A DNA stretch of 64,000 bases. Source: Chloroflexota bacterium. Its GTDB lineage: Bacteria > Chloroflexota > Anaerolineae > Anaerolineales > UBA4823. The notes beneath the pieces were generated by a model, which had not been told where the DNA came from, searched no databases, and saw nothing but the letters and a program-made list of their open reading frames with translations. The stretch lies in NCBI GenBank assembly GCA_012516075.1, contig JAAYXE010000075.1, positions 1,860 to 65,859 on the forward strand, written 5' to 3'. Of the stretch, positions 22,030 to 47,314 are shown piece by piece. The first letter of the stretch is position 1. Each line of letters opens with the position of its first letter. The position numbers and the translations under genes are program-made.

Positions 22030-22040
22030 AAGCGGTACCG

Positions 22041-23176: not shown

Positions 23177-23197
23177 TTCGTCTAACCCCTTAATAGT

Positions 23198-25662: not shown

Positions 25663-25664
25663 AC

Positions 25665-28276: not shown

Positions 28277-28319
28277 GAATGCTCCTTACCTGAAATACCC
28301 TTCTCTGCCTGGGGCCGCT

Positions 28320-29642: not shown

Positions 29643-29654
29643 TCCTTTATTTCA

Positions 29655-30860
29655 TTAGTGGCTGTTTACTGCCATAACCTCCGGATACAGGCCCATCTGC
29701 TGCAGCGCCTGCCGGACCTCGGTACAGTAGACCGGGTTCATGACAATGACCACATCCGGCCGGTATGCCAGTAAAAACTGCGGAGACTGAATTTCCTGGC
29801 CGGTTCCGGCAATGAAGGAACCGGTTTTATGTGGATTAATGTCAATGGCGTATGCGATTTCACCGGTGGTGATCCCCAGGGTTGTCAGGAAAGCGACGGC
29901 TTTGGACCCTCCACCCCACAGGACAACCTTTTTCCCCGCCCCTGTAAACCCGGCGATTTTCTGGCGCCAGGCTGCCAGCCGGTGGGGATATTGAGCGGAG
30001 AAATGATCGATTTCCTGCGCCAGCTCACTCATATCGTCCGGGAGTGCGAACAGGTTTTGAGGGCGCTCTGAAACCGGACGGGCGGCGATCATCAGATACT
30101 GGTCATCGTAATCTTTCCACAGGTCGATGACCTCGAAACCCGAGCGGGCGAATAAACGCGCCAGAGAGCCCAGGCTGAAGTAAGAGCAGTGCTCGTAGTA
30201 GATGTCCCAGAAAGCAATTTCCCCAAAAACGTAGCGGGCATTCGGGACCTGAAAGAAGATCGTCGCCTGCAGATTCTGTTCAACAGACCTGCGCACCATG
30301 CCGACAAAATCAGCAACCTGGGGAATGTGCTCCAGAGTCATTTTGCAGCACACGAAATCCCCGCCGGTAGAAACGTATTTCTCGGAATAGAAATCCTGGA
30401 TAAAGGAAACGCGTTCGTTCTGACCGACAGGGCTGCGTTCGGGCACATAAGCCGGGTCAAATCCAATGCCGGTATTTCCCCCCAGCTCGCACAGCAAAGA
30501 AAGGAACTCACCCTGACCACACCCGATCTCAATAATCCGCTTTCCATGCAGATCGAAGCGGTCGATCAATGTTTGAGCCAGGTTTTTATGGAAAGCGTTG
30601 AAGGTGGGCGAGTATCCCTGCGTGGCCTCGTAGCGGGATGAGTACTCGTGCACACCCGGGTCGAAGGCTGTATTGAAAATGAAACCGCAGCCCTGACAGA
30701 ATCCCAGGCGGATATCTCCCCGCGGATAGTTTTCCGCCTCTGAGCGGCTGTTGAGAAGCAGCACACTGTGCACGGGAACCTGCCGGATTTCATAAAAGAT
30801 TTTGATATCTATTGAGCCGCAGCCCGGACATGAGATTTTTGAAGTGTGCGAGTGAAGCAT
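29655..30860 (-). CDS. class I SAM-dependent methyltransferase with N-terminal Zn-ribbon and C-methyltransferase-type C-terminal domain (TylCIII-like architecture)
   Basis: 401 aa. CPGCGS...CQGCGF Zn-ribbon. SAM motif IIEIGCGQGEFL. Rossmann-like C-terminal VVLWGGGSKAV. Paralogous architecture to 34630..35862. Confidence 0.65.
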   Translation of the reverse strand: MLHSHTSKISCPGCGSIDIKIFYEIRQVPVHSVLLLNSRSEAENYPRGDIRLGFCQGCGFIFNTAFDPGVHEYSSRYEATQGYSPTFNAFHKNLAQTLIDRFDLHGKRIIEIGCGQGEFLSLLCELGGNTGIGFDPAYVPERSPVGQNERVSFIQDFYSEKYVSTGGDFVCCKMTLEHIPQVADFVGMVRRSVEQNLQATIFFQVPNARYVFGEIAFWDIYYEHCSYFSLGSLARLFARSGFEVIDLWKDYDDQYLMIAARPVSERPQNLFALPDDMSELAQEIDHFSAQYPHRLAAWRQKIAGFTGAGKKVVLWGGGSKAVAFLTTLGITTGEIAYAIDINPHKTGSFIAGTGQEIQSPQFLLAYRPDVVIVMNPVYCTEVRQALQQMGLYPEVMAVNSH

Positions 30861-30925
30861 ATTTTTATCCAGTGAGTAACTAATCGATCCGGCCAGTACG
30901 GTGAGCGCTGGCGATCATGCAAGCG

Positions 30926-32521: not shown

Positions 32522-32548
32522 GCCAGGAGCCCGGCTCTTTTCACAGCC

Positions 32549-33514
32549 TTAAACCTGACCTCTCTCGAACGGTTTTTCCGTGCTGGTCTGCAGCCCACCT
32601 CTCAACCGGTAGGACAGGTCTTTCGCGGCAACAATCAGATCACTGATCAGATGGCGCGCATTCTTTCTGATCCAGATCAACATATAGAAGTGCCCGAGTA
32701 AACGGGTTTTCAAATCCAGCGGGTACATCCACAGGCTGGTGAGGAACTCCTTGAACATTCGCCAGTACGGGAAGATGATTTTTCCGGCTTTCGTGGGGTC
32801 AAACCAGACGGTGTACAGATGATAGTTGTTGCCGCCGCTTTCGCTCAGTCCGAACATACGATTAGACTGCTTTGCATGCCTGCGGGAAAAGAAAAGGACT
32901 TCCGGAATTTCCTCAAATCGCCCCAGCAAACCCAGCCTGGCCAGGAGAACACCATCCGCATGACCATAATTCCCCATTACGGGCGTTTGCTTTAATGCGC
33001 TTGTGCGGATCAATCCAAAGATCTCAAAGCACATGCTCCAGTCCAGCAGCAGTGAGCGAAACCGGACGGCAGGTGAAGGCGAATCGGTGGGAAGTTTTAA
33101 CGTGTAATCAAGAATGTGGTTGCGTTTTTCATCCACGATCGTAACCCGTGGATAGCTCAGCACGACCGAAGGATCCTGATCCAGAACCTCTACGGCCCGG
33201 GCGAGGTATTCGGGGGCAATATAATCATCATGCGCTGCCCATTTAAAATATTCCCCCCTTGCGAGTTCAAAGACGCGGTTAAAGTTCCAGGCAGAGCCTT
33301 TATTTACCTCACTGCGGTAATAGCGAATGCGCCCGTCCTTCGCCGCGTATGCTTCACAAATCTCCTGCGTGCGGTCCGTTGAGGCATTATCCGAGATGAT
33401 CAGTTCAAAATCCTCGAAGGTCTGGACCAGAATTGAATCAATCGCCTCCGCAAGGTAGTTCTCCCCGTTGTACACAGGTAATCCGATACTTACTCTGGGA
33501 TTCTTTTCAGGCAT
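32549..33514 (-). CDS. glycosyltransferase family 2
   Basis: 321 aa. VSIGLPVYNGENYLAEAIDSILVQTFEDFELIISDNASTDRT, AAHDD. Confidence 0.85.
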   Translation of the reverse strand: MPEKNPRVSIGLPVYNGENYLAEAIDSILVQTFEDFELIISDNASTDRTQEICEAYAAKDGRIRYYRSEVNKGSAWNFNRVFELARGEYFKWAAHDDYIAPEYLARAVEVLDQDPSVVLSYPRVTIVDEKRNHILDYTLKLPTDSPSPAVRFRSLLLDWSMCFEIFGLIRTSALKQTPVMGNYGHADGVLLARLGLLGRFEEIPEVLFFSRRHAKQSNRMFGLSESGGNNYHLYTVWFDPTKAGKIIFPYWRMFKEFLTSLWMYPLDLKTRLLGHFYMLIWIRKNARHLISDLIVAAKDLSYRLRGGLQTSTEKPFERGQV

Positions 33515-34629: not shown

Positions 34630-35862
34630 TCAGATCACAGTCAATTCAGGGATGGGGACGATAAACCGGCCGCCCATCTGACGGTAATTCTCCTGCTGGC
34701 GTACAATCTCATCTTTGAAATTCCAGGCCAGCAGCAGAACAAAATCCGGACGGTCGGCGACCAGCTTTTCGACCGGATAAATCTTGAGGTGATTGCCACC
34801 CATATAACGCCCGTGCTTATAGGGGTTCAGATCGACCACATATTCAACCCATTCCTGTCCGATTCCGCAGTATGCCAGCAGTGTAGTGGCCTTGGCGGCT
34901 GCGCCGTAAGCCGCCGTCCGGCAGCCCTGGCGCTTCAGGTCAGCCAGAAAGGCGCGCAAATCGCGCCGGATCTTCTGCACCCGCTCTGCAAACCCCAGGT
35001 AAAAGTCGACACGGTCCACCTGCCGCTGCGCTTCCATCTGCAGCAGGTCCTTCACCCCGGGGCCGGGATTTTCAACCGGCTCGACGAACAGGCGCAACGA
35101 ACCGCCGTGGATTGCTACCCGCCGTACGTCATTGATGTACAGCCCGTGACGCCGGAATAGCCGGTCCAGCGCGGTCACCGAGAAATAGCACAGGTGCTGG
35201 TGGTAGATGGTGTCGAACTCCCCGTGATCCACTAAATCCACCACATACGGCGCTTCAATAACGGCGACACCGGTTTCCTTGAGGATTGTCTTGATCCCGG
35301 TGGCAAACCCGTTCAGGTCAGGCACGTGGGCCAGCACATTATTGGCCAGAAACACATCTGCCCGTTTGCCCTCCTGAACCAGTGCTTCGGCAAGCCCGGC
35401 ATTAAAGAAGGTGACCAGCGTAGGGATACCCGCACCCAGCGCAACCTGGGCAGGGGCCCTGGCCGGGTCAATGCCCAGAACCGGGATGCCGCGCTCGACG
35501 AAGTTCTTCAGCATGTAACCGTCATTGCTGGCAGCTTCAACGACCAGGCTGTTCTTATCCAGCTTCCTGCTGTTCATGATCTCCAGCGCACTGGTGCGGA
35601 AGTGGTGCAGCAGCGAGGGAGAAACCGAGGAGAAGTAAGGATACTCTGCGTAAAAAAGGATTTCCGGATCTACGGTTTCCCGGATTTGCACCAGTGCGCA
35701 GTCCTGGCAGAAAACCAGGGTCAGGGGCGCTTTGTATTCGGGCTGGTCGAGCTGTGCTTCGGTCAGCAGCCGGTCGGCCAGCGGGGTCTCACCGAACTCC
35801 AGGATGGTTTCCAGCCGGGTTGAGCCGCAGGAGCGGCAGCATTCTTCGTTGCGGTAAATCAT
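34630..35862 (-). CDS. NDP-hexose C-methyltransferase-like SAM methyltransferase (TylCIII-like)
   Basis: ORF 34630..35898. I prefer the ATG at 35862 (MIYRNEECCRSCGSTRLETILEFGETPLADRL...), preceded by aaaggtggg. Zn-ribbon CxxC...CxxC, class I MTase core and C-methyltransferase C-terminal domain. Confidence 0.7.
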   Translation of the reverse strand: MIYRNEECCRSCGSTRLETILEFGETPLADRLLTEAQLDQPEYKAPLTLVFCQDCALVQIRETVDPEILFYAEYPYFSSVSPSLLHHFRTSALEIMNSRKLDKNSLVVEAASNDGYMLKNFVERGIPVLGIDPARAPAQVALGAGIPTLVTFFNAGLAEALVQEGKRADVFLANNVLAHVPDLNGFATGIKTILKETGVAVIEAPYVVDLVDHGEFDTIYHQHLCYFSVTALDRLFRRHGLYINDVRRVAIHGGSLRLFVEPVENPGPGVKDLLQMEAQRQVDRVDFYLGFAERVQKIRRDLRAFLADLKRQGCRTAAYGAAAKATTLLAYCGIGQEWVEYVVDLNPYKHGRYMGGNHLKIYPVEKLVADRPDFVLLLAWNFKDEIVRQQENYRQMGGRFIVPIPELTVI

Positions 35863-35945
35863 TGTTCCCACCTTTATTCTGTCCTGCCAGGGCTGCATAC
35901 ACCTGTCGGTTGACAGCCCTGGACGGGACTGACCTAAATGCAGGT

Positions 35946-37003: not shown

Positions 37004-37774
37004 TCAATCCCAGATTTTCCAGGGAGCGTTTCCCGATTCCCAGAGTTTGTTTAAGATTTGTTTTTCACGCAGGGTGTCCATGCACTGCCAGAACCCCTCG
37101 TGCCGGTAGGCCATCAACTGACCATCGGCGGCCAGGCGCTCCAGTGGTTCTTTCTCCCACACGGTTTCATCGCCGTCGATGTAGTCAAAAATTCCGGGTT
37201 CCAGGACGAAAAATGCCCCGTTGATCCAGCCCTCACCGATCTGCGGTTTCTCAGTAAATTCAGCCACGCGATCGCCATCGAAGACCAGGTGGCCGTAGCG
37301 AGCCGGAGGGCGAACGGCTGTCAGGGTAGCCAGCTTCCCGTGTGAACGGTGGAAGTCCAGCAGCTTGTGAAGGTTGACCGTCGAAACGCCATCCCCCCAG
37401 GTGAGCATAAAGGTTTCGTTGCACAGGTACGGCTGCAGGCGTTTGATTCGACCGCCGGTCATCGTGTGCAGGCCGGTGTCCACCAGGTCCACCACCCAGT
37501 CCTGAACATCGCCGCCGTGGTTGTAAACCCGGCCGTTCCTCAAATCCACCCGCAGATTGCTGTTAAAGGAGAAGTAATCAACCATATAACGCTTGATCAC
37601 TTCACCTTTGTAACCCAGGGCAATCACGAATTCCTTGAAACCGTAGCAGGAATAGTGCATCATGATATGCCAGAGAATAGGCTTGCCCCCGATTTCAACC
37701 ATGGGTTTCGGCCTGATCTCGGTTTCCTCCGCCAGTCGGGAACCGGCACCACCTGCCAGAATAGCTACTTTCAT
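37004..37774 (-). CDS. rfbF: glucose-1-phosphate cytidylyltransferase
   Basis: ORF 37004..37801. The ATG at 37774 is preceded by caaggaggg. MKVAILAGGAGSRLAEETEIRPKPMVEIGGKPILWHIMMHYSCYGFKEFVIALGYKG is the RfbF signature. Confidence 0.9.
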   Translation of the reverse strand: MKVAILAGGAGSRLAEETEIRPKPMVEIGGKPILWHIMMHYSCYGFKEFVIALGYKGEVIKRYMVDYFSFNSNLRVDLRNGRVYNHGGDVQDWVVDLVDTGLHTMTGGRIKRLQPYLCNETFMLTWGDGVSTVNLHKLLDFHRSHGKLATLTAVRPPARYGHLVFDGDRVAEFTEKPQIGEGWINGAFFVLEPGIFDYIDGDETVWEKEPLERLAADGQLMAYRHEGFWQCMDTLREKQILNKLWESGNAPWKIWD

Positions 37775-37804
37775 AAACCCTCCTTGTTTGAGTTCATCCA
37801 TGCT

Positions 37805-38224
37805 TCAGAGGTTTTCCACACAGGATCCGTTACGAGGTATATCCGAGCTGCTTTTTTCATCCTGATCCAGACAGCTCGAAACCAGCTTTTTCAACTCAGA
37901 TGAGCTGAACGGGTGCGTCAAAAAGCCGCAAGCCCCACGCATCTGGACTTCTCTGTGAATTCTTTCCTGGCCGCTGGCCGTGATCAAAATCACAGGGAGA
38001 TCTTTAAAGCGCTTATCAGCGCGCACTTTGTCCAGCAGGCCCAGGCCATCCAGATATGGCATGTTGATATCGCTGATCAACAGGTCAACCCTGTTTTTCT
38101 CGAGATAGGCAACTGCTTCGACCCCATTGCGTGCTGCGGCGATCACGTGGCGCTCGGACCGCAAAATCAGTTCAATCAACCGGTGCGTCAGGTAGGAATC
38201 GTCTACTACAAGAATGTTTGCCAT
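37805..38224 (-). CDS. stand-alone CheY-like receiver (REC) protein
   Basis: 139 aa. ILVVDDS...DLLISDINMPYLDG...ILITA...HPF. Confidence 0.85.
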   Translation of the reverse strand: MANILVVDDSYLTHRLIELILRSERHVIAAARNGVEAVAYLEKNRVDLLISDINMPYLDGLGLLDKVRADKRFKDLPVILITASGQERIHREVQMRGACGFLTHPFSSSELKKLVSSCLDQDEKSSSDIPRNGSCVENL

Positions 38225-38233
38225 GCAGAGCCC

Positions 38234-38683
38234 TTATAAATACTTCACCAACCGCCAGTGGTTGTCGCCCGGCGATGGGTGATAGCTGACATGATCCATC
38301 AACTGGTGAATGAGAGCCAGCCCGTATCCCCTGACCTGCAAATTGCTGGGGTCAGGAAAGGCGGCATCGGGCAGCACAAACGAACGACCTGAATCGCGCA
38401 GATCGACAGTGAAAGAACCGGGGTTCTCTGTGATTGTGAAAACAGCCCGAATCCGGCCGTCCTGCTCACCATAGGCATGCTCGAGAATATTGATGCACAG
38501 TTCATGAACGGCCAGGTGAACACGATAAGCAGCATCCTGGGCGGCTGTTAAACTCTCCTGCTGGAACAGTGCAGAGACACAGGCGCCCAGCACTTTGAGA
38601 AATGGCTGTTGGGCGGGGATATCAAGCTGAAGGCGGCAAAGGCGCCCTGTGGCCGGTGCTGTGGTATCTTTCATGCTCATCAC
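38234..38683 (-). CDS. RsbW/SpoIIAB-like serine protein kinase (GHKL, HATPase_c_2)
   Basis: 149 aa. N-box HELCINILEHAY. G1-like LRDSGRSF. G2-like RGYGLALI. 4-nt overlap with the upstream phosphatase gene. Confidence 0.75.
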   Translation of the reverse strand: MMSMKDTTAPATGRLCRLQLDIPAQQPFLKVLGACVSALFQQESLTAAQDAAYRVHLAVHELCINILEHAYGEQDGRIRAVFTITENPGSFTVDLRDSGRSFVLPDAAFPDPSNLQVRGYGLALIHQLMDHVSYHPSPGDNHWRLVKYL

Positions 38684-40200
38684 ACGCCCGTGCGTTTCAG
38701 CACAACGAGAGTCTGGTCATCGTCCGGAAGCGCACCGGCGCCGAAATCTCTGACCGCCGTATACAGGTTTTCAGCAATCTCTCTGGCCGGCAGATGCGCA
38801 AGCGATTCCAGCAGGGCCATGAGGCGCTCGTGTCCAAGCATTTCTCCGCTGGTGCTGCGCATCTCGTTGAGACCATCCGTTCCCACCACCAGCACATCTC
38901 CGATATCGAAAGGCAGAACCTGGTCACGTGTGTACGTGTCACGGAGAATTCCAACCGGTAACCCATCAGCCTGCAGCAGGCGGGCCCGGCCACTGTGGGG
39001 CAGGAAAATGACAGGAGAATGACCGGCGTTGGCATATACCAGTTCCCCACTGCCAGGCAGGATCTGGCCGACGAACAGGGTGGCAAACCTGCCCAGAGAA
39101 GAGAGATCGTCGTACAGGGCTTCATTAGCGTGGCAGATCACCCCGGCCGGGGTGGCGCTGTCCTGGTGGTTCAAATCGGTGCGAATGACACTGCGCGCCA
39201 TCGCCATCAGCAGGGCAGCCGGGACACCTTTTCCCGAAACATCACATACCACGAAGGTAAACACCCCGTTCTGTGCTGCGATAAAGTCGTAGAAATCCCC
39301 ACCCACCTGAGAGGCCGGCTGGGAAGCTGCCCACAGATCAAAGCCCGGCGCTGCCTGTACCATCTCTGGCAGCAGGCTTACCTGCACCTGGTGAGCCAGA
39401 TCCATCTCGGTGCGCAGCCGCACCAGTTCTACGTTGGCTGCCACCATGCGCACGTTTTCCACACTTGCGCCGGCAAAGCGAGCTACCGTCTGCAGCATTT
39501 TGATATCCGACGACATGAACTCACCGCCCGGACGATCTGCGGCCCCTATGGCGGCAAACGGCACCCCGGCGACCTGCACCGGCACGATCAGCAGGTTATT
39601 CAACCCAATCGTATTGCGCGGGTCATTTCTATGAATGGAGACAAACGGGCTGCTCCCCTGTTCCAACTCGGCCAGCACATGCTGCAGGCCGGCAGGGCCA
39701 TCCCAACCCTCCGGACTGCAGGCCGTATGCACGTTTCCATTTGGAAGGCGCAGGAAAAAGAAAGCTTTTTCCGCATTCACCAGAGCGGCGGCCTGCGAGG
39801 TCAGCAGGTCCATCGTCTGCTCAAGGGTGATACTGCTGCGCAGCACCTGGGTCAGTTCGTACAACGCGACCAGTTGGTCGCGGGCTTCAACCAGTTCCTC
39901 GGTGAGGCTGTTCAGATCCCGGTTCAGCGGGATTAACGCTGAAATCAAGCCGGCATCGGCGGCCAGGCGCTCCCGGGTCCCTGGCGTGTCGATCCCGACC
40001 ACGCGCAGTTCACCGACCACCTGGTGGTCTACGATAAGCGGGGCAGCAACCACCTTTCCCGGGGGAGTGTTCTCCTGAGGCCAGGCAGCCTGAAGCCGGC
40101 GCCCCTCCCACAAAGAGACCTGCGCAGCGCCTCGAGCCAGCCACGACTGCGCCAGGGCATTGATCTGGGGGCGATATGATTCCAGAACGGAAGCCAGCAT
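38680..40200 (-). CDS. GAF-domain PP2C (SpoIIE/RsbU-type) serine phosphatase
   Basis: ORF 38680..40311. The ATG at 40200 (MLASVLE..) lies 2 nt past the STAS gene stop. Central GAF-like region. C-terminal PPM motifs GGDFYDF, VCDVSGKGVPAAL, NAGHSP, GTDGL, DDQTLVVLKR. Confidence 0.8.
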   Translation of the reverse strand: MLASVLESYRPQINALAQSWLARGAAQVSLWEGRRLQAAWPQENTPPGKVVAAPLIVDHQVVGELRVVGIDTPGTRERLAADAGLISALIPLNRDLNSLTEELVEARDQLVALYELTQVLRSSITLEQTMDLLTSQAAALVNAEKAFFFLRLPNGNVHTACSPEGWDGPAGLQHVLAELEQGSSPFVSIHRNDPRNTIGLNNLLIVPVQVAGVPFAAIGAADRPGGEFMSSDIKMLQTVARFAGASVENVRMVAANVELVRLRTEMDLAHQVQVSLLPEMVQAAPGFDLWAASQPASQVGGDFYDFIAAQNGVFTFVVCDVSGKGVPAALLMAMARSVIRTDLNHQDSATPAGVICHANEALYDDLSSLGRFATLFVGQILPGSGELVYANAGHSPVIFLPHSGRARLLQADGLPVGILRDTYTRDQVLPFDIGDVLVVGTDGLNEMRSTSGEMLGHERLMALLESLAHLPAREIAENLYTAVRDFGAGALPDDDQTLVVLKRTGV

Positions 40201-40202
40201 CT

Positions 40203-40592
40203 TCAACTCCGGAAGGAACGGATGGCTTCTTCCTCTGAGAGGAAGATCTCGAATACACTGTCCAGGCGGGTCAGTTCGAAAATAATCCTGACCTGCTGCT
40301 GGATTTCGCATAAACGCACATCGCCGTTCAGCGCCTGTGCCCGCTTCTTCCCCAGCACGAGGGTAGACAGTGCCGTTGAATCGAGAAAGGTTACGCCGCT
40401 TAAATTCACCACCACAAAGGCCGGCGGCTTGCTGGCCGCAGTTTCAAGCCATTCGCGCGCCGGCATGTGACTGGTAACATCAAAATTGCCGGCGAGCCGC
40501 AGAATCTGTATTTGACCAACGGTGGAGGTGCTGTCAATCAGTCCACCATCCATTACCGGTCTGGTTTCAGGGGAATAAGGATTTAATGCCAT
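40203..40592 (-). CDS. STAS-domain protein (anti-sigma-factor antagonist family, RsbV/SpoIIAA/SypA-like)
   Basis: 129 aa. ..FVVVNLSGVTFLDSTALSTLVLG.. keeps the phosphorylatable Ser of the DS[ST]G-type motif. Confidence 0.8.
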   Translation of the reverse strand: MALNPYSPETRPVMDGGLIDSTSTVGQIQILRLAGNFDVTSHMPAREWLETAASKPPAFVVVNLSGVTFLDSTALSTLVLGKKRAQALNGDVRLCEIQQQVRIIFELTRLDSVFEIFLSEEEAIRSFRS

Positions 40593-42211
40593 ACTCTACG
40601 CCACCATACCTGAGGAGTCTGTGAAAGGATTTTCAAGTCTTCCTGCCAGGAGCGCATTACAACGTAATACACATCTGCGATGAGGATCTCCTCCAGCTCG
40701 CTTTTACCCGCTGCCTGGGTGTACCACAGCCCGGTGATGCCCGGGCGGCAGTCATTGCGCTTTTCCTGCCAGGCTTCGACAATTTTTTCCGCTTCGGTCG
40801 GCGACAGGGGTTTTACGCCCACCAGGTTGAGATCGCCGCGCAGCACGTTGATCAGTTCCGGCAGCCGGTGCCATTCGAGTTTCTCCAGGAGCCTGCCCAT
40901 TTTTGTCAGGCAGCCGTGGTCATCTCGAGTGGCAAACTGGTAAAGATTGAAAGCAGTCTGCTCCGCGTTATGTCCCCATACAACCGGGACGCCGTAAAAA
41001 ACCCGTCCGCTGGTTAACCACAGCAGCAGAGCGAGGGGGAGGGTCAGGGGCAGCGTGACCAGCAGTAAGAGCAGCGCCAGGCCGGCGTCGAAAATTCGCT
41101 TCAGCCCCCTCTCTGTAAAGGCTGCCGGCACCCGGCTCAACAGAAAGTCATCCGCTATTTGAATGCTGCTGGATGTACGGACGTCGATTACCTGATTCTG
41201 CTGCACCACACGATCCTGAAGGCGCACATACTGTCCAACATAGGTATGGTCCAGAATAGTGCTGCAGCGTACGGTCGCCCCCTGATCGATGACCACATTG
41301 GAACCGACCACAGTATACGGCCCTAATTCAACGCCTTTTCCAATACGGGAATTCTGCCCGATATAAACGGGAGGGATGATCTGCGCCTCGGGATGGATGG
41401 AGGAGCCGTTTCCAATCCACACCCCTTTCATCGCCTGACGCGCTTTATACAGCGCATAACGAGGCAGCGCTGAATTGTCCCGGCCTCTACCCGACTGGTA
41501 AAAATGCGCCAGGAAGGCCTCCTGTGCCTGCTGGTACTCTTTCAACGTCCCAAGCAAATTGCAGTAGCCTTCTTCGAAGTGCGCTCTGACTTTCCACCCG
41601 TTCTGAACCAGTGCCGTCAGCAGATCCTGGTGAATATCAAACTTCGTCCGCGCCGGGATGAAATCCAGGACCTGCGGATCCAGCAGGTAGACACCGGTAT
41701 CAACCCATCCCGCCGGGCCGGATAGCAGTTCCAGGCCAGTGACAAAGCCCTGATCATCCACTGCCAGGCGATTGCCATCGTCCCCGTTCACCCTGCTCAC
41801 GACAACCGTCGCACAGGCCCCACTGCTGATGTGTTCATCCAGCAGCTTCTCGAGATCAAAGTCAATGATCGCATCCGCTGGGACAACCAGGAACGGACTG
41901 CGCAGCCGCGAGGCAGCCAGCTTCAACACCCCGGCGGATCCCCACGGCTCGCGTTGAAGGACATATTCCAGCTCCACCCCCCAGCGGCGCCCCGAACCAA
42001 AATACGCCTCAATAGAGCCGCCGAAGGCATACAAACCGACCAGATACTTCTTTATCCCCTGCCGGGCGAGCAGTTCCAGTGGATAGGTCATTACCGGCTG
42101 GTTCAACACTGGAACCATCGCCGAAGGGAGGTTTTCCGTCAGCGGATACAGCTTCCGGGATTCTCCGGAAGCCTGCAGAAAAACCGGCAGTTCCCCTACG
42201 GATGGCATCAT
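40583..42211 (-). CDS. fusion protein: NTP-transferase-like + LbH + TM + monotopic phosphoglycosyl-transferase-like domain (catalytic motifs degenerate)
   Basis: 542 aa. The N-terminal nucleotidyltransferase fold has ASGESRKLYPLT in place of GGxGTRLxPLT. LbH repeats (IGQNSRIGKGVELGPYTVVGSNVVIDQGATV). TM helix. Bac_transf-like C-terminus has WHRLPELINVLRGDLNLVGVKP instead of [21 protein letters not shown], and PGITGLW. Confidence 0.65.
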   Translation of the reverse strand: MMPSVGELPVFLQASGESRKLYPLTENLPSAMVPVLNQPVMTYPLELLARQGIKKYLVGLYAFGGSIEAYFGSGRRWGVELEYVLQREPWGSAGVLKLAASRLRSPFLVVPADAIIDFDLEKLLDEHISSGACATVVVSRVNGDDGNRLAVDDQGFVTGLELLSGPAGWVDTGVYLLDPQVLDFIPARTKFDIHQDLLTALVQNGWKVRAHFEEGYCNLLGTLKEYQQAQEAFLAHFYQSGRGRDNSALPRYALYKARQAMKGVWIGNGSSIHPEAQIIPPVYIGQNSRIGKGVELGPYTVVGSNVVIDQGATVRCSTILDHTYVGQYVRLQDRVVQQNQVIDVRTSSSIQIADDFLLSRVPAAFTERGLKRIFDAGLALLLLLVTLPLTLPLALLLWLTSGRVFYGVPVVWGHNAEQTAFNLYQFATRDDHGCLTKMGRLLEKLEWHRLPELINVLRGDLNLVGVKPLSPTEAEKIVEAWQEKRNDCRPGITGLWYTQAAGKSELEEILIADVYYVVMRSWQEDLKILSQTPQVWWRRVWH

Positions 42212-42215: not shown

Positions 42216-43661
42216 TCACCCCTGAGCGGCAGCCGAGGTCAGGTTATCGTACAGGGCCAGCAGGCGGTGAAAATTCGCCATGGTGATCACCTGCATGACG
42301 TCTTTCGAACAGCCGCTCACGCGCAGCTCGCCGCCCGCTTCACGCGCCAGCCGGGTCATCGTAGCCAGGGCCGCCAGACCTGCGCTGGTAATGAAATCCG
42401 TTGTCGACAGATCCAGGATCACAAACGGTGATCGCTGTAGAGCCTGCTGGCAGTCTGCAATGACCTGGGACGCCGTGCCGGCGTCGAAAAAGCGCGGTCC
42501 GGTGAGCAGCACCCAGCGCCCGTGATCTCGCACGGTGCTGGTCGTGTCCGATTTGGTCTGTACCTCACCTGCGCAGCTCGTCTCTGTCCGCAGCAGGGTA
42601 TCCAGCTTAAGAAAAGCGAGCGACTTTTGAATTCGGGCCGGTACTGCCCGCAGGGCCAGGGATCCGTCCCGCTGGCGGATGATCCTGGCGAGTTCCACCA
42701 GCGTACCCAGGGCAGAGCTGTCCAGATGCTGCGCGGCGTTAAGATCGATCACCAGGTGAACAGTACGGTCGAGAGCCTGCTCTGCCAGTTCCCAGAAGCG
42801 CTGGCAGTGTTCGGCCGCCATGCTTCCCCCGATCGACAGGACGGCTGTGTCCCCTTCCATCTTTAGGTCAAGCGAGAAAGGTTGGCCCGAGTCGGAAGCT
42901 CCCCGGCGCATCTGCAGCCACTGACAGGCGAACAGAAAAGTGAATGCACCCAGATCAACCGCATAGCGGCGCCACAGGCGGCCGGGTTCCTGTATCAACC
43001 GGTACAGCCACTCCAGACCGTTCTTCTGCATCCACAGCGGGGCGCGCCTGGTGGTGCCGGTGATGAAGTCCAGGGTTCCGCCAACTCCCATCATCAGCGG
43101 AACGCCCAGCTGGTGAGCATACATACCCATCCACTTTTCCTGCTTGGGGTTGCCGAACGCGATGAGCAGAACGTCCGGCCGGGCGGCACGGATCTTCTCC
43201 GGAATAGACTCATCCATCTCCAGCACGGGTCTGTAAGGCGGGGAGTAGAAGCCGGCAATGCGCAGGGTCGGGTGACGTTCCTGAAGGATATGCGCCGCAC
43301 GCGCGGCCACCCCGGGCGCTGCTCCCAGCAAATAAATGGAATAACCCTTTTGCGCCGCCCGGGCAGCAAACCTGGGTACCAGATCAGCCCCTGCCACACG
43401 CTCTTCGATGTGCCCTCCCAGCAAACGCGCTCCCCAGACCACAGGCATTCCGTCCGCAGTTGCCAGATCGGCGTTCTGGAGCAGGTAGCGCAGCTCCGGG
43501 TCCTGACGGGCCTTAACGACAAAATCGGCATTAACGGTCACCACCTGAAACGTTCTACCGGTCGCACGGCCCTGCTGGACAAACGCTTCCATGCGCTTCA
43601 GGGTCGCTTCCATATTCAGATTGTCAACAGGCGTACCGAGAATGACGATCAGGTTTCGCAC
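42216..43661 (-). CDS. WecG/TagA/CpsF-family (GT26) glycosyltransferase fused to two C-terminal STAS domains
   Basis: 481 aa. GT26 part: ILGTPVDNLNMEATL...VVTVNADFVVKARQDPELRYLLQNADLATADGMPVVWGARLLG...FGNPKQEKW. STAS-1: ..LVIDLNAAQHLDSSALGTLVELARI.. STAS-2: ..FVILDLSTTDFITSAGLAALATMTRL.. Confidence 0.75.
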   Translation of the reverse strand: MRNLIVILGTPVDNLNMEATLKRMEAFVQQGRATGRTFQVVTVNADFVVKARQDPELRYLLQNADLATADGMPVVWGARLLGGHIEERVAGADLVPRFAARAAQKGYSIYLLGAAPGVAARAAHILQERHPTLRIAGFYSPPYRPVLEMDESIPEKIRAARPDVLLIAFGNPKQEKWMGMYAHQLGVPLMMGVGGTLDFITGTTRRAPLWMQKNGLEWLYRLIQEPGRLWRRYAVDLGAFTFLFACQWLQMRRGASDSGQPFSLDLKMEGDTAVLSIGGSMAAEHCQRFWELAEQALDRTVHLVIDLNAAQHLDSSALGTLVELARIIRQRDGSLALRAVPARIQKSLAFLKLDTLLRTETSCAGEVQTKSDTTSTVRDHGRWVLLTGPRFFDAGTASQVIADCQQALQRSPFVILDLSTTDFITSAGLAALATMTRLAREAGGELRVSGCSKDVMQVITMANFHRLLALYDNLTSAAAQG

Positions 43662-43753: not shown

Positions 43754-44605
43754 TTAATATGCTCCCTTGCCAGTGATCACGGCGGGGATGGTCTTGATGA
43801 GGATCTCAATGTCTTTGAGCAGGCTTTGCTCCTGAATGTACTGCAGATCCAGTTCAACCCAGCGCTGGAAGGAAAGGTCGCTGCGGCCGGAAACCTGCTG
43901 CAGCCCGGTGATTCCGGGTACGGCATCCAGGCGAGCAAAGGTATCGAAATCGTACTGACTCACCTCAGCGGGAACCGGCGGCCGCGGTCCCACCAGGCTC
44001 ATGTTGCCCTCGATCACATTGAAAAGCTGCGGCAGCTCATCGATGCTCAGCTTACGGATCAGCCGCCCTACACGGGTCACGCGTGGATCTTGACGGATCT
44101 TGAACACCACCTTATCGGCCTCATTCATGTCCATCAACTCTTGTTTGCGCGCCTCGGCATCCACATCCATGGAACGAAACTTATAGCAGTCGAACTCCTT
44201 TCCCCACTTCCCCACGCGCTTCTGGCGAAAAATCACAGGCCCAGGGGAATCGAGCTTGATGGCGAGCGCAGTGATCGCCATCACCGGCAGGGCAAAGGGA
44301 AGAAGTCCCAGCGCCAGGATCAGGTCCAGACATCGCTTGAGATTATTTTTGATTTTGATGCGGATGACCCAGGTCAGGAGCAGCAGACGGATGCGCTGCC
44401 GGGAAAGGCCTTTATTAAACGCCTGTTGGGCATGGATTTCGACCATTCGAGCTGTTTTTTCAGCCTCGGTCAGCACCACCCTCGGGGCGTACACATCCGT
44501 ATTGTTACCTGCTTTTAGCTGATCAACCCCGCTAAAACGGTAACTACCGGTATATGGACGGAACTTATTTCCGTCGGGCAGTGGTTTTGAACGAAGCACT
44601 TGCAT
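43754..44605 (-). CDS. canonical monotopic phosphoglycosyl transferase (undecaprenyl-phosphate sugar-phosphate transferase, EpsL/PglC/WbaP-C type)
   Basis: 283 aa. ..[30 protein letters not shown]...[38 protein letters not shown]...[12 protein letters not shown]. Confidence 0.85.
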
Positions 44606-44608: not shown

Positions 44609-45877
44609 TTACCCCTCATTTCTCGTCGTTCGAACCCATTCTTGCTGGCTGTGACCAAGATACACTCCCAGCACCTGTTTAACTTTCCACAGTACGAATA
44701 GCGGTACAAAGATGAAGGCCCGGTAGATTTCTCTGGGCGCCTTCACCATCTGCAATCCCGAGAAAACATAGAATGCCATCCCACCGGCCACACCCGCGCT
44801 CAGAATCAGATTGGTGCGCCCCAGCCAGAGCAGAAGCGGACTGCCGCCGGGCAGGAACCCGAGAGCGCTGCCAGCAAACAGGAGAACCGCAGCCAGCAGA
44901 TCCAGCCCGGCGAACAATGCCAGGATGGAAAATGGTGGGATGACATGTTCCACCAGTGCATCCAGATAAAGGACAGACCCGCGCAGGTCCCTTTTCAGCA
45001 GTGAAAGCCAGAATTTGCGCGCCAGATGGGGAACATAACGGCGGGCCATCTCCACCCGCCCGCTCTCCCAGCGATCATGCTGCGACTTCGACCGGCTCAG
45101 GTTGTCCGGCATCTGACCCTGCACGACTGCATCTGGGACGAAGATCACCCTTTCGCCAGCCAGCAGCAGCTTCATATGCTGTTCGATATCCTCTGTGACG
45201 GATGCAGACCAGGGGAAGCGGCGCAGCAGATCTGTGGCAAAGATCATGCCGTTGCCCTTTAACCCGGCCGATCCTCCCAGCACCATCCTCCCCAGCGGGC
45301 GCAGGTAATGCAGCCCAGCGAGAGCGATGTAGCGAATGCTCTCCGGCCCTGAACCCAGCGGACTGCGCACAGTGTAGTAAGCCTGCAGCACACGACTTCC
45401 CTGAGTTAGATAAAAATCTGCAGCAGCCAGGAAGTTCGTGGAAACTACCGAATCGGCGTCCAGGATCACCACCGCATCATCGTTGGACGTCTTCAAAAGT
45501 TTGTCGAGCGCCCACTGCAGAGCATATCCCTTGCCCCGCTTTTCGAGGTCCGTCCGCTGGTGGACGACTGCGCCCATCTGCTGTGCAACCAGCGCCGTCT
45601 GGTCCGTACAGTTATCCGCGATCACATGTACAGAGAAATGGTCGGCCGGATAATCGAGATCCGCCAGGTTTCTCAGCAAAACAGGCAGCAGTTTTTCCTC
45701 ATTGTGGGCGGGAATGAGGATGAGGAACTTGCTGCGCGACTTGCCCTGCTCTACCCGGCGCTTCCTCCCTGCCGCTTTCCAGGCTGCAAACGTCAGCAGA
45801 ACCAGATACCCAACCGGCAGGAGCAAGCCGGTTTGGAACAGGAGCAGTAAGCCTTGCAGCCAGGTAAAAAACACCAT
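44609..45877 (-). CDS. membrane-embedded GT2 with processive-synthase-type motifs (D, DxD, TED, QxxRW)
   Basis: 422 aa. N- and C-terminal TM segments. ILIPAHNEE, VVILDADS, SVTEDIE, QHDRWESG. First gene of the operon. Confidence 0.75.
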   Translation of the reverse strand: MVFFTWLQGLLLLFQTGLLLPVGYLVLLTFAAWKAAGRKRRVEQGKSRSKFLILIPAHNEEKLLPVLLRNLADLDYPADHFSVHVIADNCTDQTALVAQQMGAVVHQRTDLEKRGKGYALQWALDKLLKTSNDDAVVILDADSVVSTNFLAAADFYLTQGSRVLQAYYTVRSPLGSGPESIRYIALAGLHYLRPLGRMVLGGSAGLKGNGMIFATDLLRRFPWSASVTEDIEQHMKLLLAGERVIFVPDAVVQGQMPDNLSRSKSQHDRWESGRVEMARRYVPHLARKFWLSLLKRDLRGSVLYLDALVEHVIPPFSILALFAGLDLLAAVLLFAGSALGFLPGGSPLLLWLGRTNLILSAGVAGGMAFYVFSGLQMVKAPREIYRAFIFVPLFVLWKVKQVLGVYLGHSQQEWVRTTRNEG

Positions 45878-46028: not shown

Positions 46029-46388
46029 TTACGAATCCGCCGGATCGTGTGGCTGCTCCTGTAGTATGGCAGCGATCAGATCGGCCTTACAGGAAACCGT
46101 GATCTCTGACTTTTGATAGATATGCAGCACATTCCTGTGCATATCCAGGGTCATGATCGGGAGATCAGGGTGTTCTTCGATCAGGTCGAGTACAAAGGGA
46201 CGATCGGCCAGCAGCAAACTTTGATCCACGATGAGCATATCAGGACGGAACCGGTTCAGCTCACTGGCCAGCCTGTTACTGGCCGCATAAGCGATTCCCT
46301 TGACGACAAGCCCCTGCACCTCGGCCAGCAGGCTTTCTACGCCTAAAGAGAGCAATCGATTCCCGTGAATGATTAGAATCCGTTTCAC
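46029..46388 (-). CDS. receiver-like (pseudo-receiver?) single-domain protein
   Basis: ORF 46029..46481. A GTG at 46388 (VKRILIIHGN...) gives a 119 aa REC-like fold. The acidic pair is replaced by HGN. A candidate acceptor Asp is retained in DMLIVDQS. The start is uncertain. Confidence 0.45.
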   Translation of the reverse strand: MKRILIIHGNRLLSLGVESLLAEVQGLVVKGIAYAASNRLASELNRFRPDMLIVDQSLLLADRPFVLDLIEEHPDLPIMTLDMHRNVLHIYQKSEITVSCKADLIAAILQEQPHDPADS

Positions 46389-46518
46389 GCCTGATCCCCA
46401 ATCCCCCGGTTTGAAGATTAAGAAAGCAAACTGTAGCAATATTACGCCAGGTGAGCCTGCACTGCTATCGCCCGGTATCACCCTGCCCGGGTTAAAAAAA
46501 GGACGATCTTATCCTATC

Positions 46519-46528
46519 CACGGATAAT
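46519..46528 (+). repeat. CACGGATAAT decamer, copy 2 (within the palindrome ACGGATAATCCGT)
   Basis: Exact 10-mer. Intergenic, between the receiver-like gene and the NarL-type regulator gene. Confidence 0.6.
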
Positions 46529-46624
46529 CCGTAGATAAACCTGTGCCGAAAAAGATGTACTACTTTCGAAAACAGTTCACCTGGCCGTTTTATCCCCGCA
46601 GCCAGGACATGGAAAACTTATCTG

Positions 46625-47314
46625 CTACGCTTGACTACCGGGCTCATTAGCGGAACTGGAAGTGCTCAACGGAGCAGCGAGGTGATATTTGCGCGCCAGT
46701 TGAGCAGCTTCGCGCCGGTTTTTTACGTGCAGCTTATCGAGGATATTGTGGATGTGAACTTTGACCGTGTTCTCAGTAATAAATAGTTGTTCTGCGATCA
46801 TCCGGTTGGTCGCCCCGCTGGCCAGAAGCCTGAGCACATCCATTTCTCTACTGGTCAGCGTGGCAAGTTCAGGCAAAGACTTTTCATTACTACCCAGCAG
46901 ACGAACGAATCGATCCAGAACACGCCCGGTCATAGCGCGTGTGAGCGCAATCTCGCCGCGCTGTAGAGCATGAATGGATGCCATCAGGTGGGAAAGGGAA
47001 GTATTTTTTAGAATATACCCCTTTGCTCCACAGCGCATTGAGCTGACAACCTGATCATCAGTCTCATTGATCCCCAGGATGACAACCTTGGCATCTGCAT
47101 GGATTTGCAGAATTGAGTGCACAATTTCAAAACCATCGATATCAGGGAGCTCTGCATCCAGCAGAATGATATCCGGGCGTAGTTGTTTTACTTTATCCAG
47201 GGTTTCACCGGCCGAACCCGCCACGCCAACGACCTCGATACCGGGCTGCTTTTTCAGCAAACTAACAAGGCCTTCTCGAAACAGTGCATGATGGTCAGTA
47301 ATGAATATTTTCAT
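46625..47314 (-). CDS. NarL/FixJ-family response regulator (REC + LuxR HTH)
   Basis: 229 aa. IFITDHH...DIILLDAELPDIDG. C-terminal LTSREMDVLRLLASGATNRMIAEQLFITENTVKVHIHNILDKL. Confidence 0.9.
   Translation of the reverse strand: MKIFITDHHALFREGLVSLLKKQPGIEVVGVAGSAGETLDKVKQLRPDIILLDAELPDIDGFEIVHSILQIHADAKVVILGINETDDQVVSSMRCGAKGYILKNTSLSHLMASIHALQRGEIALTRAMTGRVLDRFVRLLGSNEKSLPELATLTSREMDVLRLLASGATNRMIAEQLFITENTVKVHIHNILDKLHVKNRREAAQLARKYHLAAPLSTSSSANEPGSQA

Follow-up and report, generated by a model that had tools for sequence, protein, structure and literature searches.

Non-catalytic paralogues built from an NTP-transferase domain followed by a left-handed β-helix (LbH) include GMPPA, plant KONJAC, the γ and ε subunits of eIF2B and the large subunit of AGPase. 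GMPPA is itself non-catalytic, binds GDP-mannose and regulates GMPPB (PMC11228364). In polysaccharide synthesis, when bacteria commit scarce undecaprenyl phosphate (UndP) to a given polymer is an active question, and direct post-translational control of initiating phosphoglycosyl transferases (PGTs) has only just been demonstrated, for EpsW–EpsZ in 2025 and for the STAS/kinase/phosphatase module of All4160 in 2026. The Myxococcus PGT EpsZ is activated by the receiver protein EpsW (PMC12802240), and the Anabaena STAS–PGT All4160 is controlled by the kinase Alr3423 and the SpoIIE-type phosphatase HenR; STAS–PGT fusions are described as rare outside cyanobacteria (PMC13555669). The N-terminal DUF of WbaP (PF13727) binds UMP and may be a UMP-responsive regulatory domain (PMC10942596), and STAS systems whose target is unknown control polysaccharide or biofilm in Vibrio fischeri (SypA/SypE) and Nostoc (HmpU/V/W) (PMC8256260).

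Here we analyse a fusion protein encoded in the window, the whole 64,000-nucleotide stretch of Chloroflexota DNA under study. On balance, we lean towards reading this protein as a conserved double pseudoenzyme with the role of a membrane-anchored adaptor or sensor, itself non-catalytic, in a module that initiates a Wzx/Wzy polysaccharide pathway under the control of phosphorylation. We found no description of the family in the searchable literature, although the sequence-network survey of PGT fusions by O'Toole (2021, PNAS) may list an NTP-transferase–PGT fusion class, and searches combining 'pseudoenzyme' or 'catalytically inactive' with phosphoglycosyl transferase returned nothing on PGTs among the top-ranked papers.

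The fusion keeps two predicted enzyme folds

The fusion gene (40583–42211, on the minus strand, as are its parts and the cassette genes from GT2 to the receiver) starts with ATG and encodes 542 amino acids, comprising a pseudo-NDP-sugar pyrophosphorylase, an LbH, a re-entrant helix and a pseudo-PGT. Pfam and the translation bear out this architecture, which had been proposed in an earlier note made by reading the sequence alone. The N-terminal NTP_transferase-like domain (approximately residues 8–240; 41492–42190) was delimited by Pfam, Foldseek and column counts, with the Pfam match spanning residues 14–232 at 83 bits against a cut-off of 21. The LbH (approximately residues 258–351; 41159–41440) is marked by matches to Hexapep, LbH_EIF2B and GMPPB_C, with Pfam placing Hexapep/LbH at residues 263–345, and by short β-strands in the model. 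A hydrophobic re-entrant membrane helix (residues 370–401; 41009–41104), recognized in the translation and the predicted model and containing Pro388, leads into a Bac_transf-like (monotopic PGT) domain (40604–41101), which Pfam matches over residues 371–536 (101 bits against a cut-off of 27; E = 5.6e-29) and which, mapped onto PglC, lacks the catalytic and ligand-binding residues.

The AF2 model of the fusion was confident (mean pLDDT 89.9, pTM 0.79). The best Foldseek matches for the N-domain were 8x7s, VTC1/KJC2 and GMPPA/GMPPB; for an NTP_transferase fold and then an LbH, the match to 8x7s reached a target-normalized TM-score of 0.84. Matches of the fusion by phmmer and Foldseek also included 7d72 (GMPPA), 8yre (KJC2) and 6caj. 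The model thus shows that the folds predicted for both fusion domains have been kept.

The PGT domain lacks predicted catalytic residues

Homology of the C-terminal domain to Bac_transf proteins was evident from a phmmer match to PglC (E = 6e-18). The predicted re-entrant helix carries a helix-breaking proline (P388, in 69/79 family members) and aligns to the Ser23–Pro24 helix of PglC, and the GxTGLW and D..YY motifs are present; the Pfam score of 101 bits compares with 218 bits for the canonical PGT encoded nearby (43754–44605). BLASTP against this PGT and phmmer against PglC (8e37/8g1n) placed H448-R449 on the Asp-Glu catalytic dyad and V466-K467-P468 on Pro-Arg-Pro, with YQFAT of the fusion paired with YKFKT(M) of the PGT. 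The dyad codons (40865–40870) read HR in the translation, as the earlier note had it. That note had allowed for a register misread across an indel, but neither the BLASTP nor the phmmer alignment contained an indel between the dyad and the PRP motif, and the register holds.

Mapping onto PglC, with residue roles taken from PMC10519829 and PMC10186338, revealed that both dyad residues (D93 to H448, E94 to R449) and all four basic residues of catalytic PGTs have been replaced: K59 of KFxTM by Q425 (R/H/Q/N in the family), R88 by E443 (Glu in 53/79), R111 of PRP by K467 (Lys in 71/79) and R145 by A501, in a column that is variable in the family. E443 and R449 form a putative charge swap. In PglC, R88 and R145 bind UndP, and mutating them cripples activity (PMC10519829). 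Position 449 is Arg in 76/79 members, and position 448 is variable (H30/Y15/D10/N8/Q6/C5), which leaves the pseudo-PGT with no conserved nucleophile.

The basic residues that have appeared at the former active site, R449 and K467, raise the idea of a lipid-carrier handler, in which the dead PGT pocket would bind UndP or an Und-PP-sugar without chemistry and pass the PGT product to GT26. The conserved re-entrant helix and the location of the fusion gene, with the step 1 gene on one side and the step 2 gene on the other, are consistent with such a role, but the loss of both UndP-binding arginines of PglC, with R88 turned into Glu, leaves it only a slim chance.

The pyrophosphorylase domain keeps base-recognition residues

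At 42137–42172, the phmmer alignment, family columns and translation all place a degenerate signature, ASGESRKLYPLT, where (A/G)GxGTRLxPLT would be expected. Residues A14-S-G-E-S-R-K-L21 align on A-A-G-K-G-T-R-V of 8x7s (phmmer), confirming that GGxGTRL reads SGESRKL; the catalytic Arg of this signature is absent from the fusion and from the family consensus, T-G-E-(T/S)-x-K-L. In RmlA-type enzymes, the Lys of P-K-P-M, the Lys of E-K-P and the Asp of W-x-D-x-G have catalytic roles. All three are kept in the intact relatives P0210 and P0224. In the fusion, S30 occupies the position of the P-K-P-M Lys (S/A/G in the family column), the EKP region is variable or gapped across the family, and the Asp of WxDxG is P219 in the family and L219 in the window protein. 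The NTP_transferase score is 83 bits in the fusion versus 187 bits in intact relatives. The base- and ribose-recognition motif Q...G(S/T)AG and the Asp of (A/G)D are present (Q86 in 72/79, G91 in 79/79, A93 in 75/79, G94 in 79/79 and D113 in 72/79), and T172 and G173 are also kept in the family. These alignments show that the residues predicted to bind Mg2+ and phosphate have been lost from the N-domain and that those predicted to recognize base and ribose have been kept.

This pattern fits a GMPPA-like metabolite sensor: the dead pyrophosphorylase would still take an NDP-sugar or nucleotide as ligand and restrain the adjoining PGT allosterically, as feedback or feed-forward control, with the STAS system acting in parallel and not through the fusion. 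The closest structures include the regulatory pseudo-pyrophosphorylases GMPPA and KJC2, the GDP-mannose binding of GMPPA and the possible UMP-responsive allosteric site in the WbaP DUF offer precedents, and a PGT adjoins the fusion at every evaluable locus. However, a conserved Glu17 in the former phosphate loop and the loss of all phosphate ligands make it doubtful that NTP or NDP binds in the canonical pose, and the retained base/ribose residues may be structural rather than ligand-related. A sensor also leaves unexplained the near-obligate adjacency of STAS, which reaches distant relatives. We consider this explanation unlikely, although it overlaps with the adaptor that we favour and does not exclude it.

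Residual or altered chemistry is conceivable, because two of the Arg replacements, K20 and K467, are conservative. Asp is found at position 448 in 10/79 members, and catalytic residues have migrated in some so-called pseudoenzymes (PMC10211241). Even so, it is improbable that the fusion is still an enzyme using non-canonical residues, whether as a PGT, as a pyrophosphorylase or with a new activity: a conserved nucleophile is absent, the losses extend to Glu94, R88, R145, the PKPM Lys, the second Asp and the EKP motif, both domains score only about half as high as intact relatives do, and an intact PGT always adjoins the fusion.

Substitutions at both sites are family traits

The double pseudoenzyme belongs to a large family. 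With one representative taken for each cluster at 50% identity, more than 100 of the 150 listed align almost full length, and approximately 80 full-length Chloroflexota homologues have the same PGT and NTP-transferase substitutions as the fusion. One homologue is 84% identical. Across 79 full-length homologues, mean column identity is 45%, with 14 invariant and 64 near-invariant columns. The architecture is shared by 154 proteins, of which 146 are doubly degenerate and 4 + 4 singly degenerate; none has both sites intact. Such conservation shows that the putative losses at both active sites are family traits under selection, not decay. Degeneracy of both sites would also be expected of a non-functional evolutionary relic or pseudogene. 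We rejected this explanation, to which we give next to no credence, on the grounds of the homologue conservation described above, the intact 542-codon open reading frame, the confidently predicted fold and an operon position conserved in around 55 species of two classes.

Association with STAS proteins extends to divergent members of the family. Where relatives combine a dead N-domain with an active PGT domain, a STAS gene lies directly upstream, a separate PGT not being shown at these loci. Distant relatives (around 30% identity) from other lineages, among them a deltaproteobacterial MAG, still have the PGT, the fusion and STAS together, in some cases with the kinase. No STAS domain was fused to the protein in ten longer family members scanned. 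One of these ten carries an N-terminal GT2 domain.

The fusion occupies a fixed place in a conserved cassette

Synteny was counted at 59 loci from Anaerolineae and Chloroflexia, with a 12-sequence alignment used to find related loci. The head of the cassette is a GT2 glycosyltransferase gene (44609–45877; Pfam), a variable member present at 34/50 loci. The canonical small monotopic PGT (43754–44605), with KFRSM, DE and PRP intact and matching WbaP structures at E ~1e-44, is encoded at 51/51 evaluable loci, and a GT26 (WecG/TagA/CpsF) protein with two C-terminal STAS domains (42216–43661; Pfam) at 53/54. On the other side of the fusion, Pfam identified a single-domain STAS protein of the anti-sigma-antagonist type (40203–40592; 57/59 loci), a GAF + PP2C (SpoIIE-type) phosphatase (38680–40311; 53/58), an RsbW/SpoIIAB-like serine kinase of the HATPase_c_2 type (38234–38683; 52/55) and a single-domain response-regulator receiver (37805–38224; 39/55). 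Homologues of the GAF + PP2C protein are 498–507 amino acids long, and the true start of its gene is probably an internal Met near 40200. An active G1P cytidylyltransferase (37004–37801) has a high-identity match at only around 8/59 loci.

The Pfam matches agree with the earlier identification of GT26-STAS and free STAS as the neighbours of the fusion. An overlap of 10 nt with the STAS gene, also claimed, stands if STAS starts at the ATG at 40592; it is not a conserved feature, because approximately 30–170 nt separate the two genes in relatives. The position of the fusion gene between PGT/GT26-STAS and the STAS/PP2C/kinase set is fixed in about 55 Chloroflexota species from the two classes, and carriers of the cassette include the cultured Chloroflexus islandicus and Kouleothrix aurantiaca. 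The large conserved family and the conserved whole cassette both go beyond the earlier note.

Together, the phospho-Ser STAS domains, the RsbW-like kinase and the PP2C phosphatase make up a partner-switching set. The phosphorylatable Ser is kept in both GT26 STAS domains (57/57 and 48/49), and the D-S motif of the free STAS is invariant (64/64). Neither the cassette genes of the window nor those of three relatives with full annotation include a sigma-factor domain that could mark the switched partner.

The fusion diverges like the signalling proteins

Median identity to the window proteins was 41% and 46% for the two fusion halves, 39–49% for STAS, PP2C and kinase, and 63–64% for the PGT and the GT26 catalytic domain; the divergence of the fusion matches that of the signalling proteins, not that of the enzymes. 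We analysed co-evolution by a crude mirror-tree test of 28 protein or domain pairs across 28 complete loci. The N-domain and the GT26 STAS tail were the top pair of the 28 (partial r 0.49–0.52) and stayed among the three highest-ranked pairs in 89% of subsamples. In a partner-switching system, PP2C–kinase and STAS–PP2C are the pairs expected to interact, and the signal between the N-domain and the STAS tail was on par with theirs. Shared local genealogy could contribute to this top pair, because the GT26 STAS tail and the N-domain are encoded by contiguous DNA; the signal was absent from other contiguous pairs. Co-evolution of the PGT with the pseudo-PGT (partial r 0.37 in one setting; median rank 9 of 28) was not robust to distance measure or subsampling, and we dropped it.

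The mirror-tree test also bears on whether the fusion could be the protein that the kinase holds in check. In such a system, the fusion would take the place of the sigma factor, and the RsbW-like kinase would bind it and keep it silent until it is freed by unphosphorylated STAS. The cassette has the full STAS/kinase/PP2C set and lacks a sigma factor, and the kinase adjoins the fusion in distant lineages too. However, the signal between the two fusion domains and the kinase was close to zero (−0.07 and 0.07), and the relatives at loci L083 and L087 have STAS beside the fusion and no kinase in the stretch read. We give sequestration by the kinase little credence.

Discussion

Because its two dead enzyme domains nearly always adjoin a working PGT and a phosphorylation switch, the most likely role of the fusion is to regulate or scaffold the opening steps of surface-polysaccharide synthesis, not to catalyse them. 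The suggestion, made when only the one sequence had been read, that it works as a regulatory or scaffolding subunit and not as an enzyme gains support from the conserved substitutions, the confident fold, the fixed gene position and the signalling-like divergence. In the adaptor model that we favour, the fusion would couple the first two lipid-linked steps to a partner-switching module that works independently of sigma factors. The re-entrant helix of the dead PGT domain would anchor the protein at the cytoplasmic membrane face, next to the real PGT. The dead pyrophosphorylase/LbH domain, which may have kept the ability to bind a nucleoside or NDP-sugar, would serve as a docking platform for STAS domains, both the free one and those in the tail of GT26. 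Phosphorylation of the three conserved STAS serines would be controlled by the kinase and phosphatase, and its state would decide whether GT26 (step 2) is held beside the PGT (step 1). Whether GT26 is held there would in turn determine whether UndP is committed to this polymer. Docking of GT26 cannot be a universal part of the model, because some relatives (L019, L077 and L086) are without a GT26-STAS partner.

More specifically, and only tentatively, the fusion could be the direct output partner of STAS. Its N-domain and LbH might bind unphosphorylated STAS, possibly along with an NDP-sugar, and its dead PGT might pair with the real PGT, gating the PGT–GT26 complex and the commitment of UndP. 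In that case, the fusion would be the first described pseudo-PGT and would offer a mechanistic template for STAS systems without a known target, such as those of SypA and HmpV.

The cassette is a compact and widely conserved system, and its missing link may prove to be a dedicated protein, assembled from two dead enzymes of the pathway and itself non-catalytic. If this proves true, monotopic PGTs would join the enzyme families with known pseudoenzyme regulators, and the automatic annotations 'sugar transferase' and 'NDP-sugar pyrophosphorylase' would need correcting across the family.

Comparison with known systems

The fusion shares the two-domain fold of the GMPPA-type proteins and, like them, has lost catalytic residues but retains base-recognition residues and the fold; proteins of this kind are expected to be regulatory. 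Unlike them, it is bacterial, its N-domain and LbH, with their putative ligand binding, are joined to a membrane-embedded dead PGT, and in place of an active pyrophosphorylase paralogue its conserved partners are a PGT, GT26 and a STAS system. With the catalytic domain of PglC and WbaP it has in common the Bac_transf domain, a re-entrant helix with Pro, GxTGLW and D..YY, but replacement of the dyad, the PRP Arg, K59, R88 and R145 suggests that it is a homologue and not a catalytic member. The WbaP DUF is likewise a nucleotide-binding-type domain that precedes a PGT fold, and it has been proposed as a regulator of UndP use; it differs in having another fold, in acting in cis on an active PGT and in lacking a link to a phosphorylation switch.

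Among signalling systems, the SypA/SypE and HmpU/V/W loci resemble the cassette in having STAS, kinase and phosphatase genes within a polysaccharide locus and no known sigma-factor output, although a fusion of the cassette type is not known there. EpsW–EpsZ shows that a small signalling protein can control a monotopic PGT post-translationally, and the cassette has its own single-domain receiver at most loci (39/55, as above); unlike the cassette PGT, EpsZ is a large PGT activated through dimerization, and neither a pseudoenzyme nor STAS takes part. The STAS–PGTs Anabaena All4160 and Synechocystis XssP offer a parallel in signalling components, a partner-switching-like set of STAS, kinase and SpoIIE-type phosphatase; in the All4160 system this set acts directly on the initiation enzyme, not on a sigma factor. 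In these proteins STAS is fused to an active PGT, whereas in the cassette the PGT is bare, STAS is carried by GT26 and by a free protein, and the putative double pseudoenzyme is interposed.

A three-domain protein with substituted active-site motifs

The gene at 40583..42211 (minus strand) consists of one reading frame of 542 codons. The three-part architecture that the earlier note had read from the sequence was recovered in full by Pfam, with an NTP_transferase domain at residues 14–232 (83 bits), hexapeptide/left-handed beta-helix (LbH) models at residues 263–345 and a Bac_transf domain, that of monotopic phosphoglycosyl transferases (PGTs), at residues 371–536 (101 bits). With that Bac_transf model, the canonical PGT lying two genes upstream (43754–44605) reached 218 bits. 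The note had also called both active sites degenerate, conceding that an indel might have shifted the catalytic dyad. BLASTP of the fusion against the canonical PGT paired LEKLEWHRLPELINVLRGDLNLVGVKP gap-free with its 27-residue counterpart, and phmmer comparison with PglC sequences of solved structure (8e37 and 8g1n) gave an identical register; because the two agree, the Asp-Glu dyad is His448-Arg449 and Pro-Arg-Pro is Val-Lys-Pro in the fusion. When the fusion was aligned with 8x7s, a UDP-glucose pyrophosphorylase of solved structure, A14-SGESRKL fell on A-AGKGTRV, with SGESRKL replacing the GGxGTRL signature, and Ser30 matched the Lys of P-K-P-M. Translation of the exact window coordinates reproduced both degenerate motifs. 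Pfam likewise found the neighbours named in the note, a GT26 gene with two STAS domains (42216–43661) and a free STAS gene (40203–40592); the 10-nt overlap reported between the fusion and STAS genes exists if STAS translation begins with the ATG at 40592, and is not conserved in relatives.

An AlphaFold2 model of the fusion, built on a 79-sequence family alignment, had a mean pLDDT of 89.9 and a pTM of 0.79, with nothing below 50 in any segment. Its N-terminal two-thirds matched 8x7s in Foldseek (target-normalised TM-score 0.84), followed by VTC1/KJC2, GMPPA/GMPPB, eIF2B and ADP-glucose pyrophosphorylases. Regulatory, at times non-catalytic, subunits are known in the VTC1/KJC2, GMPPA/GMPPB, eIF2B and ADP-glucose pyrophosphorylase families.

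Conservation of the substituted residues

A word-indexed search returned about 80 full-length proteins sharing the fusion's Pfam architecture, all from Chloroflexota where the source name carried a taxon (Anaerolineales, Ardenticatenaceae, Thermoflexales, Oscillochloris and Roseiflexaceae), and when cluster representatives were scanned exhaustively with HMMER, more than 100 of the 150 matches listed aligned near full length. The 79-sequence alignment has a mean column identity of 45%; 14 of its columns are invariant and 64 near-invariant, and the 'wrong' residues at the former active sites were themselves conserved. The Asp-Glu dyad is the active-site centre (PMC10186338), and PglC Arg88 and Arg145 mediate undecaprenyl phosphate (UndP) binding, their mutation strongly cutting activity (PMC10519829). 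In the fusion family, the dyad Glu is replaced by Arg at position 449 (76/79), the dyad Asp at position 448 is variable (H30, Y15, D10, N8, Q6, C5), and positions 466–468, canonically Pro-Arg-Pro, read V (76), K (71) and P (78). The counterpart of Arg88 is Glu at position 443 (53/79), that of Arg145 (position 501) is variable and that of PglC Lys59 (position 425) is R, H, Q or N. The loss of these UndP-binding residues speaks against a lipid-carrier handler, one alternative to the adaptor role proposed below. The proline of the re-entrant helix is kept (P388 in 69/79). The exchanges of PglC Arg88 for E443 and PglC Glu94 for R449 (codons ~40865–40887) form an apparent charge swap at the former PGT site, and an E443-R449 salt bridge could fill the former Mg/phosphate site.

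The N-domain consensus is A-T-G-E-(T/S)-x-K-L-x-P-L-T; the PKPM Lys becomes S, A or G, the E-K-P segment lies within a variable, gapped stretch, and the Asp of W-x-D-x-G is mostly Pro. Retained residues include Q86 (72/79), G91 (79/79), A93-G94, D113 (72/79) and T172-G173, whose counterparts in RmlA-type enzymes we take to touch base, ribose and sugar. The fold is preserved with every phosphate- and metal-handling residue gone, and the nucleoside pocket is possibly preserved, a feature on which a rival reading of the fusion as a pure metabolite sensor would draw. Judged from the alignment, degeneracy is a conserved family trait. Conservation of the substituted residues across the 79 homologues argues strongly against decay as its cause and against the view of the fusion as a relic.

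We sorted 154 retrieved proteins of the N-to-C fusion architecture, a sample skewed to relatives of the query, by key residues. Both sites were degenerate in 146, the pyrophosphorylase signature was intact and the PGT dead in 4, and the N-domain was dead and the PGT intact (KFRTM, DE, xRP) in 4; none in this biased sample had both sites intact, and within it the fusion is never a bifunctional enzyme. The intact-pyrophosphorylase class carries AAGVGSRL and PKP and, in inspected members, also EKP and WSDIG (for example, the retrieved proteins P0210 and P0224). Pfam NTP_transferase scores mirror these classes, with 187 bits for the intact P0229 versus 53–104 bits for degenerate members.

P0229, which has an additional GT2 at its N terminus, and proteins from the related loci L080 (3607–5193) and L081 (3340–4893) combine a pyrophosphorylase signature that is canonical throughout with a dead PGT domain; they may be membrane-tethered active NDP-sugar synthases, and possibly represent an evolutionary intermediate within the family. 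Conversely arranged proteins, with a dead N-domain and an intact PGT domain (KFRTM, DE, NRP), occur at L083 (9590–11503) and L087 (4579–6811), a form that may resemble a cis-regulated ancestor.

Genomic context of the fusion

Three annotated relatives on large contigs share the order (GT2), Bac_transf, WecG+STAS(+STAS), fusion, STAS, (GAF-)SpoIIE, HATPase_c_2, Response_reg; the flanking sugar-modifying and polymerisation genes vary from locus to locus. A survey of GTDB species, with one genome each, yielded 75 loci, and the window's cassette proteins were compared by tblastn with the whole locus set, which includes four from the contigs of annotated relatives. Across the 59 loci with a contiguous fusion, scoring only positions reached by the contig, a PGT (51/51) and a GT26 (53/54) lay beside the fusion, the GT26 carried a STAS tail in 52/55, and a free STAS adjoined the fusion in 57/59; the cassette held a PP2C phosphatase in 53/58, a kinase in 52/55, a receiver in 39/55 and a GT2 in 34/50. 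None of the cassettes, including those of the window and the three annotated relatives, showed a sigma-factor domain. The cassette occurs in Anaerolineae (Promineifilaceae, Ardenticatenaceae, Caldilineaceae and Thermoflexales) and in Chloroflexia (Chloroflexus islandicus, Kouleothrix and Oscillochloris). Individual loci depart from this order: STAS, PP2C and kinase are inverted 4–6 kb downstream in L040 and all absent within the 10 kb read downstream of the fusion in L044, and L019 has no GT26-STAS gene between PGT and fusion. In a MAG labelled 'Candidatus Gracilibacteria', one contig (L037) that looks mis-binned carries a full Chloroflexota-type cassette whose PGT is 64% identical to that of the window.

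The association extends beyond this phylum and architecture. In a deltaproteobacterial MAG (L077, 9740–14208), a canonical PGT is followed by a fusion of 511 aa with both sites degenerate, by an ORF of 335 aa that by eye looks like a putative metallophosphoesterase, and by a STAS and a HATPase_c_2 kinase; the GT26-STAS gene is absent between PGT and fusion. L086 has PGT, fusion, STAS, kinase and UDPGP, with a REC-SpoIIE phosphatase further along, and the P0253 contig has STAS, PGT and fusion. L080 and L081, with intact pyrophosphorylase domains, lie among PGT, GT26-STAS, STAS and kinase genes. Two of three active-PGT relatives (L083 and L087) have a STAS gene directly upstream, and the stretch read shows no PGT apart from the fusion; the third, L088, lacks the STAS. 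What these loci share is an (NTP-transferase-like + LbH)-PGT-fold protein beside a STAS, with one catalytically competent PGT domain in cis or neighbouring.

In the window, gene spacing from 45877 down to 35946 is −10 to +92 nt, consistent with one operon, save for a 109-nt overlap between STAS and PP2C that is probably an ORF-calling artefact. The longest GAF-PP2C ORF (38680–40311, minus strand) encodes 543 aa; because homologues have 498–507 aa, the true start is probably the internal Met of 'MLASVLESY' near 40200, which would leave only a few bases shared with the STAS stop. The same strand carries, from 18 to 46 kb, a Wzx/Wzy-type cluster that encodes Wzz, Wzy_C and a Polysacc_synt flippase. 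The cassette stands at the head of its long run at 18381–33514 (minus strand), which includes Wzz (27161–28276), the flippase (25665–27164), Wzy_C (23198–24742), a VanZ + LamG-like protein (30926–32521) and GT2/GT4 enzymes; two C-methyltransferase-like genes lie at 29655–30860 and 34630–35898, all on the minus strand. Directly upstream of the cassette (46029–47314, minus strand), two response-regulator-like genes recognised by eye, a putative NarL/LuxR-type regulator (46625–47314) and a putative receiver-like gene (46029–46481), may control transcription of the cluster.

Signalling genes of the cassette and a possible co-evolution signal

The phosphorylatable serine is kept in all three cassette STAS domains (free STAS D-S, 64/64; GT26 STAS1 D-S, 57/57; GT26 STAS2 x-S, 48/49), and by eye the window kinase has the usual N-box and G-box and the phosphatase the usual DxxGxG and DGL motifs. 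This set is also what an alternative reading of the fusion as a kinase-sequestered target would call upon. The PGT and the GT26 catalytic domain had a median orthologue identity to the window proteins of 63–64%. The values for the fusion halves were 41% and 46%, in the range of STAS (49%), PP2C (39%), kinase (42%) and receiver (43%). Mirror-tree analysis of 28 loci with all eight segments (28 pairs; residual correlation after removal of shared signal) placed GT26 STAS tail–fusion N-domain (0.49–0.52) and PP2C–kinase (0.43–0.55) at the top, with STAS–PP2C (0.30–0.34) in the top five and third by Spearman/p-distance. The STAS tail–N-domain pair had a median rank of 1 of 28, and 89% of 70% subsamples placed it among the first three. 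This is a weak method, and the DNA encoding the two segments is contiguous; values for other contiguous pairs were low (GT26 catalytic domain–STAS tail, 0.04; fusion C-domain–STAS, −0.05). We regard the signal as no more than a lead. The PGT–pseudo-PGT correlation across the 28 loci (0.37) was not robust.

Proposed role and comparison with known systems

The fusion is a conserved homologue of two enzymes, folded in a confident model; its homology to both families is clear, and it lacks the catalytic equipment that marks membership of either. Its gene is coupled to those for an intact PGT, a GT26 with a STAS tail and a STAS/kinase/phosphatase set lacking a sigma factor. The protein is very probably non-catalytic but functional. 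We lean, by a small degree, towards an adaptor or sensor role, in which a membrane-anchored platform couples the STAS switch to the PGT and GT26 steps. The alternatives named above, and a reading as a cryptic enzyme, are less likely. The dead PGT domain would anchor the fusion at the inner leaflet beside the PGT, and the dead pyrophosphorylase/LbH domain would read the phosphorylation state of STAS and possibly also a nucleoside or NDP-sugar; step 1 (PGT) and step 2 (GT26) would thereby be coupled or uncoupled, or the PGT modulated directly.

Database names of the homologues are automatic ('sugar transferase' and 'NDP-sugar pyrophosphorylase family protein'), and the literature searched contained no description of a pseudo-PGT or of this fusion family, although a 2021 survey of PGT fusions may list the architecture. 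Precedents for the proposed logic are GMPPA, a dead paralogue that binds ligand (PMC11228364), the PGT All4160, under STAS-dependent control (PMC13555669), EpsZ, whose activation depends on a receiver protein (PMC12802240), and the WbaP DUF, a possible UMP-responsive regulatory domain (PMC10942596). By analogy, the fusion would work most like regulatory pseudo-pyrophosphorylases of the GMPPA/KONJAC class, from which it differs in its partners and in being membrane-tethered via a second dead enzyme domain. The cassette is non-canonical partner-switching of the kind described for Anabaena All4160, wired differently: STAS-PGT fusions are rare outside cyanobacteria (PMC13555669), and here, unlike in All4160, the STAS domains are on the GT26 and on a free protein.
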